The position numbers and the translations under genes are program-made. Of a DNA stretch of 8,995 nucleotides, positions 2,080 through 8,295 are shown one piece after another. How positions within the stretch are numbered: position 1 is the first letter of the stretch; every line of letters starts with the position of its first letter. The stretch is from a virus (lineage: Duplodnaviria; Heunggongvirae; Uroviricota; Caudoviricetes): the IMG/VR virus record IMGVR_UViG_2609460067_000017. The stretch is one strand, 5' to 3'. Below the pieces are notes generated by a model. That model searched no databases and was not told the origin of the DNA. It saw nothing but the letters and a program-made list of their open reading frames with translations.

Positions 2080-2197
2080 TTCAGTTCAAATTTCCAGGCC
2101 AGCCGCTGCTGGCATGCAACTTTCCCCTAACACAAAAACACCTTTACACAGTGAATATTTTTTTGCCCCTCACTACAAATTATTTTTTAAAAACACA

Positions 2198-2226
2198 TTG
2201 ACCATTACAAATACAAATTGTAAAGT
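2198..2226 (+). promoter_or_regulatory. Candidate pL-like early promoter overlapped by a third operator
   Basis: -35-like TTGACC (2198-2203), 17-nt spacer, -10-like TAAAGT (2221-2226); overlapped by TTACAAATacaAATTGTAA (2206-2224), which shares the TTACAAAT half-site with the two operators at 1593-1631. A partial copy CTACAAATTAT lies at 2173-2183. Confidence 0.4.
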
Positions 2227-2562
2227 CACTTTCATCAACAACGCTTACCCAGCGGCAGTTGTTCAGAAACACGTTCTGACAGCCGGAAAGACGGCACCAA
2301 ATTTTGCGCGTCGGCGCCAACACGGTGACAGAGGGAAAGACTTCACCGGCATATGGCACATGTGTCGAAGCGGTCTGGATGGAAGCGGAGCCTTAACGCG
2401 TTGTCTCCATAGCAGGTAGCCGGAATGTGCAAGCCACAGCCAGGTATGAGCGATTGATTCACCATCAAGGCGATACGGTGTGACCACCAGGGAAGAGTCC
2501 TGGCTACAACACGAGAGCGCACTTCATCGACTCAACTTTGAGCTTTGTCGTTAAATTTTGAA

Positions 2563-2648
2563 ATGGCGGAGTGCGCTCCCGGTTGTGGTGAACAGGTGTT
2601 TAACGGGAACTCCCTGCCCGTTACCCGGTTCGATTCCGGGCGCCCATC
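2563..2648 (+). other. tRNA-like element or fragment (T-arm CCCGG-TTCGATT-CCGGG followed by an acceptor-like CGCCCAT)
   Basis: A perfect T-stem/loop motif at 2624-2640 (GGTTCGATTCC embedded in a 5-bp GC stem) followed by 7 nt and a C. No CCA is encoded and I could not pair a clean 5' acceptor strand (ATGGCGG at 2563-2569 pairs only 5 of 7), so this is a tRNA-like structure or tRNA 3' fragment, not a confident tRNA gene. Confidence 0.2.
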
Positions 2649-2672
2649 ATCAATTTGCTGTGTTTAGTCTTT

Positions 2673-2700
2673 GCCCAGTCCGCACGATGGGCCATTTTTT
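2673..2700 (+). terminator. Possible weak intrinsic terminator (GCCCA-N10-TGGGC followed by CA and T6)
   Basis: 5-bp GC-rich stem at 2673-2677 and 2688-2692, then a T6 run at 2695-2700; about 25 nt downstream of the tRNA-like motif. The loop is long, so strength is uncertain. Confidence 0.25.
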
Positions 2701-2981
2701 CACACAGCCAGGTTTTATCGCTGTGCCTGAGTCCCCAACAGGAGAGGCCAAACCCGCAGCGTGACACCAGGGAAAGACCGGAGGAAGTACCACGCCTGAC
2801 CAGCGTTGACCATGAGCCTGACCAGCTCAAAACAGGAAAGACCAGCCCGGGCCTGACCAGCCCTGTACGGTCGTAATGGAAACATAACGACGCCGGAAAC
2901 GTAACCGGCACCCTTTAGATAGCAAAAGACCCGCACAAGGCGGGCCAGTTACCCCGAACGGCGACCAAACCATTCGGATTT

Positions 2982-3005
2982 ATCACAAGTGACCAAACTT
3001 GTGAT
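2982..3005. repeat. Perfect 9-bp inverted repeat (ATCACAAGT-gaccaa-ACTTGTGAT)
   Basis: Perfect palindromic arms at 2982-2990 and 2997-3005; it overlaps copy 1 of the ATGAGGAAAGACCA motif by 2 nt and lies upstream of the first early ORF. Could be a protein-binding site or an RNA hairpin in the early leader. Confidence 0.5.
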
Positions 3006-3017
3006 GAGGAAAGACCA
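3004..3017 (+). repeat. Copy 1 of conserved motif ATGAGGAAAGACCA (followed by ACG, not ATG)
   Basis: The 13-nt core ATGAGGAAAGACC matches the copies at 3427 and 6602 exactly. Here no ORF follows directly, which may mark a decayed gene start or a recombination joint. Confidence 0.6.
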
Positions 3018-3089
3018 ACGACACTGACGCTATGGAAGCTGATCAATATTCGCTGATCGGCTCTGAGTATACATTACCAAGGAGTCGCT

Positions 3090-3410
3090 ATGGAAGCGCG
3101 CACCATCCCAGTAACACTCTTTATTCATTATGCAACTTCAACTTTCAGCCACGAAAAGCTGCTTGTTGCGACTGTTGATATGTCAAAAAATTTTCCAGAC
3201 AGGTACATCCTTCTGGAAAGCCGCGAAATTGAAATTACCGTTAACCAGCCCGAGCCAATCGACATCATCGGTTTACAGGTCGAGCAACTGCGTGAACAAA
3301 AACAGAAAACAGTCGCCGACGCCCAACAGCGTATTGCTGCTATCGATGACAAAATCCAGCAGTTACTTTGCATCGAATACACGCCAGATACCGATGAGCT
3401 CCCCTACTAA
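3090..3410 (+). CDS. Hypothetical early-operon protein (106 aa, predicted coiled-coil C-terminus)
   Basis: ORF with a strong SD AAGGAG (3077-3082) 7 nt upstream of the ATG at 3090; TAA stop at 3408-3410; C-terminal region rich in Q/E/K heptad-like residues. No recognisable family. Confidence 0.6.
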   Translation: MEARTIPVTLFIHYATSTFSHEKLLVATVDMSKNFPDRYILLESREIEITVNQPEPIDIIGLQVEQLREQKQKTVADAQQRIAAIDDKIQQLLCIEYTPDTDELPY

Positions 3411-6679: not shown

Positions 6680-6878
6680 ATCAAAGCAATGTGAGGCTCT
6701 TCGCCGGGCTGGAATTTTCTTCATGGAAAGGGCTGACGGACACCCAAAAACAACCTGGGGCCATTTCATGAACCCAATAAAATTTCGCAATTTACAGGAG
6801 GTGACGACGCGAAAAGATGATGAACCTGATTTTGGAGCAATATTTAATGGCCGGAAAGAGAAAGAACCCAGCAGATAA
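6615..6878 (+). CDS. Excisionase-like / recombination directionality factor candidate (small DNA-binding protein upstream of int, DUF4224-like)
   Basis: 87-aa ORF directly upstream of and overlapping the integrase start by about 30 nt, an arrangement like lambda xis-int. The MVELTGSPLKSKQCEALRRAGIFF segment resembles the small DNA-binding proteins commonly found upstream of phage integrases (recall, not searched). Confidence 0.5.
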   Translation: MKSDHDIITREEMVELTGSPLKSKQCEALRRAGIFFMERADGHPKTTWGHFMNPIKFRNLQEVTTRKDDEPDFGAIFNGRKEKEPSR

Positions 6879-7863
6879 CTGGATGCCGCCTCGTGTTTAC
6901 CAGGGCAAAGCGGCCTACGAATTCAGGAATAAAGATAACAAAGCGATACGCCTGTGCGCATTGGATGCACCACGATCAGCCGTATGGCTGGCATATGAAA
7001 AAGCGGTCGGTGACGAAAAAGAAAGAAATACTTTTCAGGCGCTCACGGAACAATTCATGACCTCCCCTGATTTTATGGATTTGGCAGTCGAAACCCGGAA
7101 AGACTACACAAAATATTCCGGAAAAGTTCTGCCTGTCTTCGGGAAGATCGACCCGGATAAAATCAAACCTGAACATATTCGGCGCTATATGGATCAACGC
7201 GGTTTATCAAGCCGAACTCAGGCAAACAGGGAAAAAAGCTTTATGTCCCGGGTATTCCGTTGGGGTTATGAACGAGGTTATGTTCAGAGGAATCCTTGTC
7301 AGGGAGTTAAACAGTTTAAAGAGAAAGCTCGCGAACGTTATATTACGGATGAAGAATATCAGGCCGTTTATGAAGTGTCTCCTGATGTTGTTCGCGTAGC
7401 AATGGAGATTGCCTACTTATGCGTGGCCAGACAGAGTGATGTACTTTCATTGCAGAAAGACCAGCTGTTCGATTCCGGGATCTACATTCGTCAGGGAAAA
7501 ACCGGCGTTAAGCAAATCAAAGCCTGGTCGCCTCGTCTGCAGAAAGCGATAGCTCTGGCTCGTTCTCTGCCATTAAAAACGGGAATCAGTAGCCTGTTTG
7601 TGATTCATCAAACTACCGGTGGCAAGTATACCCGTGATGGTTTTAACTCTCGTTGGCGTGATGTCAAAGCGGCAGCACAGGAAAAATATCCTCATCTGCA
7701 AATAGACTTCACATTTCATGATCTGAAAGCAAAAGGTATCTCTGATCTGGAAGGCAGCCTGGAAGAGAAGCAAGCAATTTCCGGGCATAAGAACCCGCGA
7801 CAGACAGCAGCATATGACCGGAAAGTTAAAGTAGTGCCCGTAGTTGGTGGCCAGAGAAAATGA
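6847..7863 (+). CDS. int: Lambda-family tyrosine integrase
   Basis: C-terminal catalytic-domain motifs by recall of lambda Int: KTGVK (versus SKTGVKIAIP), FHDLKA (versus FHELRS) and GHKNPRQTAAYDR (versus GHKSDTMASQYRD), with the tyrosine nucleophile near the C-terminus. The start is taken as ATG 6847 (MAGKRK, analogous to lambda MGRRRS); the track ORF begins at 6817. Lies next to the tRNA-Leu 3' end. TGA stop at 7861-7863. Confidence 0.9.
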   Translation: MAGKRKNPADNWMPPRVYQGKAAYEFRNKDNKAIRLCALDAPRSAVWLAYEKAVGDEKERNTFQALTEQFMTSPDFMDLAVETRKDYTKYSGKVLPVFGKIDPDKIKPEHIRRYMDQRGLSSRTQANREKSFMSRVFRWGYERGYVQRNPCQGVKQFKEKARERYITDEEYQAVYEVSPDVVRVAMEIAYLCVARQSDVLSLQKDQLFDSGIYIRQGKTGVKQIKAWSPRLQKAIALARSLPLKTGISSLFVIHQTTGGKYTRDGFNSRWRDVKAAAQEKYPHLQIDFTFHDLKAKGISDLEGSLEEKQAISGHKNPRQTAAYDRKVKVVPVVGGQRK

Positions 7864-7909: not shown

Positions 7910-7926
7910 AATGAGAAAGAAGATAC

Positions 7927-7950
7927 AAAAAAACCACCCGAAGGTGGTTT
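7927..7950 (-). terminator. Strong rho-independent terminator for the glyW-cysT-leuZ tRNA operon (weakly bidirectional)
   Basis: Minus-strand RNA reads AAACCACC-UUCG-GGUGGUUU followed by a U-tract (A7 on the plus strand at 7927-7933): a GC-rich stem with a UUCG tetraloop about 45 nt downstream of the leuZ 3' end. On the plus strand the same hairpin is followed by only TTT, so it is at best a weak terminator for int. Confidence 0.7.
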
Positions 7951-7993
7951 CACGACACTGCTTATTGCTTTGATTTTATTCTTATCTTTCCCA

Positions 7994-8080
7994 TGGTACC
8001 CGGAGCGGGACTTGAACCCGCACAGCGCGAACGCCGAGGGATTTTAAATCCCTTGTGTCTACCGATTCCACCATCCGGGC
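7994..8080 (-). tRNA. leuZ: tRNA-Leu (anticodon UAA), 87 nt including CCA
   Basis: The reverse complement reads GCCCGGATGGTGGAATCGGTAGACACAAGGGATTTAAAATCCCTCGGCGTTCGCGCTGTGCGGGTTCAAGTCCCGCTCCGGGTACCA: class II tRNA with a long variable arm, anticodon loop TTTAAAA and T-loop GGTTCAAGTCC; matches E. coli leuZ by recall. Confidence 0.95.
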
Positions 8081-8092
8081 TCGGGAAAAAAG

Positions 8093-8166
8093 TGGAGGCG
8101 CGTTCCGGAGTCGAACCGGACTAGACGGATTTGCAATCCGCTACATAACCGCTTTGTTAACGCGCC
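8093..8166 (-). tRNA. cysT: tRNA-Cys (anticodon GCA), 74 nt including CCA
   Basis: The reverse complement reads GGCGCGTTAACAAAGCGGTTATGTAGCGGATTGCAAATCCGTCTAGTCCGGTTCGACTCCGGAACGCGCCTCCA; matches E. coli cysT by recall. Confidence 0.95.
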
Positions 8167-8219
8167 AAATTCTTCAGGCCTTTCAGCCAGACATCCGCTG
8201 ACGCCGATGCCTTTTAAAC

Positions 8220-8295
<76 letters not shown>

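Follow-up and report, generated by a model that had tools for sequence, protein, structure and literature searches.

A predicted KilS-family small RNA gene with a tRNA-like cloverleaf in the early-left leader of a leuZ prophage

The DNA analysed here, called the window throughout, is a stretch of 8,995 nucleotides (nt) from IMG/VR virus record IMGVR_UViG_2609460067_000017. It is the left part of a lambdoid prophage, and its insertion site is leuZ. We studied an element at positions 2563-2700 on the + strand, which a first-pass annotation had described as tRNA-like. Our analysis indicates that positions 2566-2700 are probably a small RNA (sRNA) gene of the leuZ prophage, which lies between the repressor gene and the early-left (kil/recE-type) genes and encodes a trans-acting, cloverleaf-bearing variant of the KilS family, approximately 135 nt long. 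The sRNA as such belongs to a known, barely studied family: in the searchable literature, outside of which most subscription journals lie, we found only one paper on KilS (PMC8175672). In the same literature we found no report of the homology between KilS, the processed 3′ domain of RprA, part of DicF and the phage cassette described below, and no report of the cloverleaf family or of its fusion to this cassette.

The relationship to KilS is seen in E. coli K-12. A cassette of the type present in L061 (loci are denoted by L and a number) matches approximately 2,200 of 5,426 E. coli genomes, and in K-12 it lies within the Rac prophage between sieB and kilR. At that site, the annotation of NC_000913.3 gives kilS (b4833), "small RNA KilS", at 1418405-1418502 on the - strand. 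KilS was predicted from RNA interaction by ligation and sequencing (RIL-seq) with Hfq and sits in the 5′ untranslated region (UTR) of kilR. It has its own mapped transcription start site, and its RIL-seq partner is yncL. In northern blots, it was present in the wild type and absent in an hfq deletion, and it accumulated in stationary phase (Bar et al. 2021, PMC8175672). RprA and DicF are not mentioned in that paper.

Window positions 2505-2712 are collinear with the kilS region through the upstream sequence, the 5′ end, the seed and the terminator (alignment A8). The parts that align with kilS are the 5′-terminal 21 nt and the 17-mer seed, whereas the middle and the terminator type differ. The 5′ end is GUGGGAGUGCGCCUCCGGUUGU in KilS and GCGGAGUGCGCUCCCGGUUGU, from G2566, in the window. 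Thus, the two share a homologous upstream region including a -10-like GTTAAAT, a 5′ end of the form G(C/U)GGGAGUGCGC..CCGGUUGU, the seed UUGCUGUGUGUAGUC and an intrinsic terminator at the end. They also occupy the same slot on the same strand: the order is repressor, element and early-left open reading frames (ORFs) from 3090 in the window, and racR, kilS and then kilR in Rac. The slot, in which a motif-bearing noncoding stretch lies between a repressor and early-left genes, was also found in L044, L014, L019 and Rac-SA53. In contrast, the window has a 58-nt cloverleaf at the place of KilS AAAUAACGACA, its terminator is RprA-type while that of KilS is DicF-type (GGCGGCAUCAG...), and the predicted RNA has about 135 nt as compared with 98 nt. 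Because the element is collinear with kilS and lies in the KilS slot, the interval 2563-2700 coincides almost exactly with a KilS-type sRNA gene. In K-12, the yncL 5′UTR (-40 to -16) was predicted to pair with KilS ACAUUGCUGUGUGUAGUCCU, within the region of the 17-mer, with an energy of -18.9 kcal/mol, a value that 0.3% of shuffled queries also reached. This computed pairing is suggestive support for the 17-mer as the seed.

The 3′ module of the element is homologous to processed RprA. When 2560-2710 was compared with 28 Gb of sequence by blastn, window 2655-2704 matched rprA at 84% identity over 50 nt (E 7e-5), and rprA was matched in about 5,424 complete E. coli genomes, essentially all of them. 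In the E. coli genomes, only rprA and the element itself were matched, with the limit that matches of 24 nt or fewer may escape the threshold. The best permissive Rfam hit was also RprA (RF00034; 37.4 bits, E 0.0055), with nearly all of the signal in the 3′ half; this score does not reach the gathering score of 70 of the 108-position model. RprAproc, the last 47 nt of RprA, coexists with the full-length RNA and has an activity of its own, as on narP(+1+50) (Brosse et al., PMC9262595). The alignment of window 2653-2700 with RprAproc begins exactly at the RprAproc start and extends as far as the U-run (CAUCA preceding AUUUGCUG versus ACAACG preceding AAUUGCUG). The two share a 22-nt conserved core, AUUGCUGUGUGUAGUCUUUGCC, and a terminator of the same type. 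The seed-like 17-mer of the window, TTGCTGTGTtTAGTCTT (2655-2671, +), is identical at 16 of 17 positions to the core TTGCTGTGTGTAGTCTT of RprA, KilS and the phages, with a single mismatch to RprA. It is preceded by the linker CAUCAUCAAU (2645-2654, +), where the alignment to rprA predicts RNase E cleavage near A2652/A2653. It is followed by the RprA-type intrinsic terminator (2673-2700, +), in which 2673-2677 pair with 2688-2692 and 2679-2680 with 2686-2687, G2678 is bulged, and CA and U6 (2695-2700) come after the stem. The terminator-like hairpin of the first-pass annotation (2673-2692, then six T at 2695-2700) is present both in the terminator listing and in the fold. It is not a plain terminator, however, but the seed-plus-terminator of an sRNA gene of the RprA/KilS type. 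Upstream of 2653, the window has no similarity to RprA, namely to its 5′ 60 nt with stem-loops 1 and 2 and the rpoS-pairing region. Furthermore, the window locus is the leuZ prophage and not ydiK-ydiL, and there is no evidence of an RcsB-dependent promoter.

The 17-mer and its terminator form a cassette that is common in phages. A scan of IMG/VR gave at least 120 contigs with TTGCTGTGTNTAGTCTT. Among the viral copies, 89 are distinct, and in every one of these a hairpin and a T-run come after the 17-mer; the sequences and lengths of the hairpins are diverse. An automatic test for a hairpin plus T-run recognized 78 of the 89, and T-runs within loops were the sole cause of failure in the other 11. 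Upstream of the cassette, either an ordinary gene ends with its stop codon or structured noncoding modules of several kinds are present. In several other contexts, a hairpin and a following ...GGCCACCACA(C)AA stand at the end and resemble another minihelix with a CCA-like end. The blastn search of sequenced phages showed that the module is also a 3′UTR module in lytic phages. For example, in the Erwinia N4-like phage Ea9-2 it comes directly after the thymidylate synthase gene, and it is further present in Erwinia/Dickeya jumbo phages and in Escherichia, Cronobacter, Citrobacter and Aeromonas phages. Rfam called RprA in none of the 27 viral loci tested. In L061 (2444-2495, -) and L078 (7883-7934, -), Rfam instead gave DicF at 61.6 bits; here, the RprA/KilS 17-mer is joined to a DicF-type terminator. 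Because these two loci join an RprA-like seed to a DicF-type terminator, the seed and terminator behave as exchangeable modules. Moreover, automatic DicF annotations may hide KilS-like sRNAs, because the 5′ part of L061 and L078 is the RprA/KilS 17-mer and not the DicF seed. DicF itself (RF00039; dicB operon of the Qin prophage) resembles the window sRNA in that it is a short Hfq sRNA with an intrinsic terminator in an early operon beside a lambdoid immunity region, and its terminator is shared with the seed-bearing sister cassettes L061 and L078. However, the DicF seed, UUUCUGGUGACG, differs, and the DicF model (gathering score 48) gave no match in 2080-3100 at E values up to 10.

We searched for targets of the seed near the cassette. 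Within 3 kb on either side in 121 loci, complements of the 17-mer were not enriched except for AAAGAC/GGAAAGAC boxes, which numbered 165 as compared with 9.6 expected and were concentrated in 25 loci. Apart from these boxes, which may be such sites, phage-internal seed targets following the logic of P4 CI and P1 C4 appear unlikely: the strongest duplex predicted within the window, formed with GAGGGAAAGACUU at 2330, has -23.5 kcal/mol, which is the background level. The lack of other complementary targets nearby is consistent with a different explanation, in which the element is chiefly a cis-acting attenuator, that is, the first intrinsic terminator of the pL leader, read through upon antitermination. 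The conserved 17-mer and the structures upstream of it would then control termination or antitermination and not act in trans, and any short RNA would be a by-product. The position of the element, approximately 470 nt 3′ of a repressor-controlled pL-like promoter and approximately 390 nt 5′ of the first early-left ORF, fits this explanation, as do the repeated leader hairpins with boxB-like GAAAGA loops. A further point in its favour is a conserved ACAC(A/G), often CACACAG, which stands directly 3′ of the terminator U-run in many viral copies and is complementary to GUGU/CUGUGUG of the seed. In the window this segment is CACACAGCC (2701-2709, +), complementary to the seed GCUGUGU, and over the viral copies ACACACAG was observed 20 times on the motif strand, as compared with 9.6 expected. 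In read-through transcripts, ACAC(A/G) could pair with the seed and mask it. Nevertheless, the same 17-mer and terminator end ordinary lytic-phage genes such as thymidylate synthase of Ea9-2 as well as rprA, to which the logic of antitermination is inapplicable, and KilS of K-12 is made as a discrete RNA that depends on Hfq and has an RNA partner. Because these three facts stay unexplained, a terminator acting only in cis falls short, and we consider the attenuator explanation rather unlikely. It should be mentioned that the two roles are compatible, since lambda PreS at tL2a has both.

A precedent for the sRNA assignment is PreS/LPR1, an Hfq sRNA at the early-left terminator tL2a of lambda, which is shortened by processing and acts on host mRNAs (bioRxiv 10.1101/2024.10.31.621285). 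In contrast to the window sRNA, it lacks a tRNA-like domain; its expression is confined to the lytic cycle. PreS/LPR1 (L182, lambda, approximately 930-985, - strand) ends ...AAUCUUCUUUGCCCUCCAGUGUGAGGGCGAUUUUUU and has no real sequence homology to the window sRNA: the pre-terminator CUUUGCCC, which is common to RprA and the window sRNA, is all that is shared, and the 17-mer is absent. Identity with lambda PreS was therefore rejected.

The place of the KilS middle part is taken in the window by a cloverleaf of 58 nt (2587-2644, +), which is a four-way junction without linkers and was found by RNAalifold and covariation. All of its arms are on the + strand. The acceptor-like helix P1 pairs 2587-2590 with 2641-2644, and the D-like arm pairs 2591-2593 with 2598-2600 around the loop AGGU. 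The anticodon-like arm pairs 2601-2607 with 2617-2623 around the loop AACUCCCUG, which contains a conserved U-CCC-U, and the T-arm pairs 2624-2628 with 2636-2640 around the loop UUCGAUU. Relatives of the cloverleaf were collected by motif scans, and RNAalifold was run on a MAFFT alignment of eight sequences (A5). In A5, 99.3% of the cells are paired and 8 of the 19 pairs are changed on both sides; none of 500 shuffles was as high, and slid controls gave 37-49%. A covariance model, R1, was then applied to 65 further viral loci, in which it gave 40 strong matches (52-87 bits). In the R1 alignment of 23 distinct sequences from at least seven lineages, 92.6% of the cells are paired and 18 of 23 pairs are changed on both sides (slid controls, 33-47%). 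The T-arm (2624-2640; a 5-base pair (bp) stem and the 7-nt loop UUCRANY) is paired in 100% of the cells, and three of its five pairs covary. The acceptor extension is paired in 83% overall, with a 5′ strand that is invariant in most lineages. While the stems vary, AGG of the D-like loop, the loop motif UUCCCU and GGUUCGAnUCC of the T-loop are invariant. The minimum-free-energy fold of 2585-2646 is the same cloverleaf.

These results clarify several features of the first-pass annotation. The T-arm that it had recognized is read directly from the sequence (CCCGG 2624-2628, TTCGATT 2629-2635 and CCGGG 2636-2640, then CGCCCAT 2641-2647), and no CCA is encoded, since CAUCAUCAAU comes next. In 2.4 Mb of phage DNA, the frequency of hairpins of this type was 0.0038 per 120 nt. 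Because such hairpins are rare and the present one is conserved with compensatory changes in several phage lineages, the T-arm is beyond chance. From the proposed 7-nt acceptor-like strand, CGCC (2641-2644) has the covarying partner GGUG (2587-2590), whereas the remaining 3 nt show no covariation. An acceptor extension GUUG/CAUC, pairing 2582-2585 with 2645-2648 and leaving U2586 bulged, is possible, but it does not covary. A 7-bp acceptor stem with ATGGCGG (2563-2569) was rejected, because these bases belong to the 5′ end of the sRNA and to the module A described below and their pairing does not covary. As for the whole interval 2563-2700, the description as tRNA-like is correct for the inner part, 2587-2644; positions 2563-2581 are the sRNA 5′ end and the 3′ strand of module A.

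The cloverleaf resembles tRNA in the order of its four arms, in the 5-bp T-stem with UUCGAUU, in GG of the D-like loop and in U-CCC-U of the anticodon-like loop. However, its acceptor-like helix has 4 bp as compared with 7, its D-stem has 3 bp with a 4-nt loop, and linker and variable nucleotides are absent. The anticodon-like stem has 7 bp as compared with 5, and its loop has 9 nt in the window and 5-8 nt elsewhere, as compared with 7. There is no CCA and no 7-bp acceptor. In addition, tRNAs have a purine at position 37, whereas U-CCC-U gives a pyrimidine at the equivalent position. At this site, ARAGORN detected no tRNA either in the window or in 20 relatives, and Rfam gave no match when gathering thresholds were applied. 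In the permissive Rfam search, the best tRNA-clan score for the window was tRNA-Sec (19.3 bits, E 0.31). The most tRNA-like lineage, L190, with the 7-nt loop UUCCCUA and linker nucleotides, scored about 19 bits (18.9) with tRNA-Sec and similarly with tymovirus tRNA-like models. Conversely, R1 weakly recognizes the genuine tRNA-Cys of the window (16.3 bits). From the absence of a tRNA-like score, the first-pass annotation would have concluded that the T-arm is a chance hairpin. The score is indeed below the tRNA level, but this conclusion is wrong because the structure is conserved.

When approximately 1 Mb of motif-bearing viral loci was searched with R1, the cloverleaf was found only in the model-building lineages (L067, L075 and L018) and in L056 and L095, which are identical to the window. 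A scan of genome contigs for GTTGYGGYGAWCAGG..GGTTCGA gave 47 matches, nearly all of which are chance matches in unrelated phyla; only those in Escherichia whittamii (L135) and in an Enterobacterales metagenome-assembled genome (L153) are real. In most lineages, the cloverleaf is followed by an RprA-like seed and terminator, sometimes with an extra hairpin between them, and the seed is exact or diverged (for example, AUUGCUGUGUGUAGCUGU and GGUGUGUAGUCAUU). As a separate observation, a hairpin AUCACG-(C)UUAGGAC-CGUGAU with the loop AGGA recurs in loci of the L067, L075, L004 and L020 types, between the cloverleaf or other modules and the seed. In L197 (2267-2407), a genuine tRNA-Met(CAU) ends where the cloverleaf starts, so that tRNA-Met, cloverleaf and seed-terminator are in tandem. 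In L229 (1472-2180), a tRNA-Met(CAU) is located on the same strand approximately 570 nt upstream of the cloverleaf. The prophage of E. whittamii (L135) is related to that of the window, occupies the same leuZ site and has an identical module A and cloverleaf; it diverges after CCGGGCGC and has no RprA-like seed and terminator.

Because the loop motifs UUCCCU, AGG and GGUUCGAnUCC are invariant while the stems vary, and because a spacer or processing signal would not need such an anticodon-like loop, we considered whether the cloverleaf is a tRNA mimic with its own job as a decoy or substrate, linked only incidentally to the sRNA cassette. Its partner would then be a tRNA-recognizing factor of the host or the phage, such as an anticodon nuclease, a modification enzyme, an aminoacyl-tRNA synthetase or a factor of the EF-Tu type. 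The occurrence of the cloverleaf without an RprA-like seed in L135, L209, L243, L222 and L220 and the adjoining real tRNA-Met in L197 are in accord with this idea. On the other hand, a mimic without a CCA end or a 7-bp acceptor stem, with a 9-nt loop in the window and U at position 37, is not called by any tRNA model, and in most lineages it is followed by the seed and terminator. A mimic independent of the sRNA thus appears unlikely.

The first-pass annotation had offered an attachment-site (att) remnant of another tRNA-targeting element, a phage tRNA-like RNA or a tRNA fragment captured during illegitimate excision. The second option agrees with our results: acceptor-, D-, anticodon-like and T-arms are kept by covariation, and the cloverleaf adjoins a genuine tRNA-Met in one relative. 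The other two would make the element a functionless relic, such as a decayed tRNA gene or an att or excision remnant, beside an ordinary terminator. A canonical T-arm without an encoded CCA and without a tRNA call would suit a relic, and this prophage family does integrate at tRNA genes (leuZ in the window and in L135). However, compensatory double changes are found in all four helices in at least seven lineages, the loops are invariant, and the element is far from the integrase gene and att. It also occurs in phages of other context, and its stems vary between lineages through compensatory changes instead of following a host tRNA. The supposedly ordinary terminator carries a 17-mer that is shared with rprA and with at least 120 phage contigs. 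It had been noted correctly that the element is on the + strand, opposite to leuZ (-), and differs from leuZ, the T-arm of which is GCGGG-TTCAAGT-CCCGC. We consider a relic very improbable, and capture by illegitimate excision is unsupported as a present-day description, although the cloverleaf may have a remote origin in a tRNA.

At its 5′ side, the predicted sRNA is probably preceded by an internal promoter of the KilS type. A -10-like TAAATT (2552-2557, +) aligns with K-12 TGtTAAATT, an extended -10 located 7 nt before the annotated KilS 5′ end, and GTTAAAT is common to the window, K-12, L006 and L018. From this alignment, the start site is predicted at G2565/G2566. The RNA would begin with a 5′ hairpin, GGAG-UGCG-CUCC (2568-2579, +), which was found in the minimum-free-energy fold; the homologous 5′ end of KilS is GGGAGUGCGCCUCC. 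In a short transcript, this hairpin is the alternative to the helix of module A (2512-2581, +), an inverted repeat in which CGAGAGCGCACU (2512-2523) pairs with AGUGCGCUCCCG (2570-2581) around a 46-nt loop. The stems of module A covary in L004 (two copies), L067 and K-12 Rac. Its 3′ strand is the sRNA 5′ end, and module A can form only in long (pL) transcripts. We rejected a pseudoknot in which the loop of module A would pair with the tail downstream of the T-arm: each lineage has some complement of 4-6 nt, but at a different place, and these were taken as chance.

The interval might instead encode a peptide. A reading frame of 34 amino acids, MAECAPGCGEQVFNGNSLPVTRFDSGRPSSICCV, is open from ATG 2563 to TAG 2667 in the window (with a TTG-started version, 2545-2667), and the same ATG to TAG is open in L018. 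However, there is no Shine-Dalgarno sequence, relatives of the L067, L153 and L190 types have no such ORF, and conservation tracks base pairs rather than codons. Across the T-arm, the frame differs between the window and L018 through offsetting 1-nt indels, which make the middle third of the two peptides unrelated. The small ORF was therefore rejected as its frame is not conserved, and a coding function is the least probable of the explanations considered. Taken together, the covariation, the location and the unconserved reading frame contradict the relic, att-remnant and peptide explanations.

Several points weigh against the assignment of 2566-2700 as a KilS-family sRNA gene. We infer the promoter, 5′ end, Hfq binding and processing of the window element, and no -35 was found for the internal promoter. 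In contrast to KilS, the extended -10 TG is missing, being CG in the window (CGTTAAATT, 2549-2557, versus TGTTAAATT), and the seed carries a lineage-specific change of G to U at 2664. The terminator is weaker than that of RprA, since its stem is bulged and CA separates the stem from the U-run. The fold energy is no better than that of shuffled sequence (z -0.3 to -0.8). With respect to the cloverleaf, the 23-sequence alignment (A7) was fitted to R1, which flatters its pair counts, and the acceptor-like helix has only four covarying pairs, which with the stacked T-stem make 9 bp as compared with 12 in tRNA. Furthermore, the cassette occurs without the cloverleaf in L006 and K-12 KilS, and the cloverleaf occurs without the seed in L135, L209 and L243. 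Because the close relatives L006 and K-12 KilS do well without it, the cloverleaf is inessential to the cassette.

On the sRNA assignment, we propose the following mechanism. The RNA would be transcribed from its own weak -10-type promoter, as suggested by the homology to KilS, and/or within the pL leader. Its 3′ end would be set by the RprA-type terminator, which is present at 2700. Homology to both processed RprA and the KilS seed is seen in the 3′ module, which comprises the seed UUGCUGUGUuUAGUCUU, the hairpin and the U-run. This module would bind Hfq and base-pair with mRNAs in trans, as has been found by others for K-12 KilS with yncL. The cloverleaf, with its canonical T-loop and GG in the D-like loop, is inserted between the 5′ hairpin and the seed, as covariation indicates, and might form a tRNA-type elbow through contact of the D-like-loop GG with the T-loop. 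RNase P might cut on the 5′ side of the cloverleaf and RNase E in the A/U-rich linker, and these cuts might release an RprAproc-like sRNA of approximately 48 nt with a 5′ monophosphate. Recognition by RNase P is uncertain because the acceptor-like helix has only four covarying pairs. Alternatively or additionally, the cloverleaf may be a stabilizing 5′ domain. Because the UUCCCU loop is invariant, the cloverleaf seems to be more than punctuation, and this loop might be a second seed or a protein contact. Thus, a processing signal, a stabilizer and a second seed are all conceivable roles, of which the first seems the most likely.

Regulatory RNAs linked to tRNAs are known in other systems: 3′ETS-leuZ of glyW-cysT-leuZ, the RNase P-processed C4 RNA of P1/P7 and CI RNA of P4, the tRNA-miRNA chimeras of murine gammaherpesvirus 68, and MALAT1-mascRNA. 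As in the window, a tRNA or tRNA-like fold is directly upstream of or within a small regulatory RNA, and in these systems the ends are set by tRNA-processing enzymes. Several of them are viral, and the tandem tRNA-Met, cloverleaf and seed-terminator of L197 is comparable. In contrast, the window cloverleaf has a 4-bp covarying acceptor-like helix and no CCA, and its processing is putative. Rfam C4 gave no match in the window element.

A wider reading, which we put forward only tentatively and hold to be doubtful, is that temperate and lytic enterobacterial phages share a mobile cassette of the 17-nt seed and a terminator, which in several lineages is also fused to a degenerate tRNA. On this reading, the cassette would have versions in the active 3′ domain of RprA, in KilS and in part of DicF, and either the phages act on the RprA regulon or the host has domesticated a phage module. 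The fused tRNA with its UUCCCU loop would be a processing or punctuation signal, possibly also a C-rich second seed, and a counterpart of the herpesvirus tRNA-miRNA chimeras. If the sRNA assignment of 2566-2700 is correct, it would link RprA, KilS and DicF, which have been treated as separate sRNAs, through one seed-terminator module that also circulates in phages, including lytic phages of Erwinia and Dickeya. This would bear on the origin of core sRNAs and on the use of host post-transcriptional networks by phages. It could also help to explain the activity of processed RprA, for example on narP(+1+50); the same seed in KilS has a predicted site in the yncL 5′UTR. The cloverleaf would be a new covariation-supported family of tRNA-like RNAs of phages and a case in which tRNA-type processing feeds an Hfq sRNA. 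The assignment would further give an identity to an unannotated 1-kb gap of 448 of 5,426 complete E. coli genomes.

In these 448 genomes, which include JJ1886 (an ST131 strain), 501 bases around the element are present at 99% identity or higher. All of the copies are chromosomal, and none is annotated. In RefSeq, the element is inside an annotation gap of approximately 1 kb, which separates a helix-turn-helix repressor gene (about 1687-2079, +) from the first of the early-left ORFs (3090-3410, +). The replication genes, ydaT and a cro-like gene have the opposite orientation. The tRNA genes glyW-cysT-leuZ are at 7994-8295 on the - strand, with leuZ at 7994-8080 (-), and are followed in the matching genomes by pgsA and uvrC. 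The integrase gene is at 6817-7863, so that the element lies about 4.2 kb from it and about 5.3 kb from leuZ, within the immunity region and early-left leader. The pL-like promoter, TTGACC-17-TAAAGT (2198-2226, +), was found by a promoter scan as a sigma-70-like sequence. Operator-like 20-mers of the family ATTACAAA..TGTAA are present in four copies spanning 1593-1631 and 2172-2223: two, at 1593 and 1612, are in the cro/cI divergent region, and two (2172-2191 and 2204-2223) overlap the pL-like promoter. We infer that 2198-2226 is a repressor-controlled promoter of the pL type, which starts the early-left leader containing the element. A blastn search of 2540-2710 against 50,697 phage records gave zero matches; thus, the element as a whole is absent from the sequenced phages, among which the leader is shared only with BUCT708/709.

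Other conserved sequences were observed in the leader. Upstream of the element, at 2343-2520, there is a conserved noncoding block, GGTAGCCGGAATGTGCAAG...TCACCA..GGCGAT.CGGTGTGAC..GGAAGAG, which is also found in L003 (2501-2593), L004 (about 2995-3190) and L005 (about 1403-1540). It has approximately 70-78% identity to P1, P7, D6 and P1-like plasmids, where it is located between tRNA-Ile and ban/dnaB. Further matches are in epsilon15-like, TL-2011b, mEp390 and Klebsiella phages, and the annotation of epsilon15 gives an RNase III site for the overlapping feature. The block has no Rfam family.

The GGAAAGAC boxes are present eight times on the + strand of the window (2285, 2334, 2771, 2835, 3008, 3431, 6606 and 7097) and once on the - strand, as compared with approximately 0.14 expected per strand. 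Two of them coincide with ribosome-binding regions, one preceding ATG 3441 and the other ATG 6615. The leader copies are in boxB-like hairpins with GAAAGA loops, for example GCCG-GAAAGA-CGGC at 2281-2294, which covaries with GUCUG-GAAAGA-CAGAC of L018. They also have partial complementarity to GUCUUU of the seed and to UUCCCU of the cloverleaf loop.

Directly downstream of leuZ, at 7925-7993 (-), we observed AUGGGAAAGAUAAGAAUAAAAUCAAAGCAAUAAGCAGUGUCGUGAAACCACCUUCGGGUGGUUUUUUU with a terminator at its end, while the integrase gene ends at 7863. We take this sequence to resemble the native 3′ETS-leuZ sRNA sponge. If so, integration at leuZ leaves the sponge intact, or the phage provides a copy of it.

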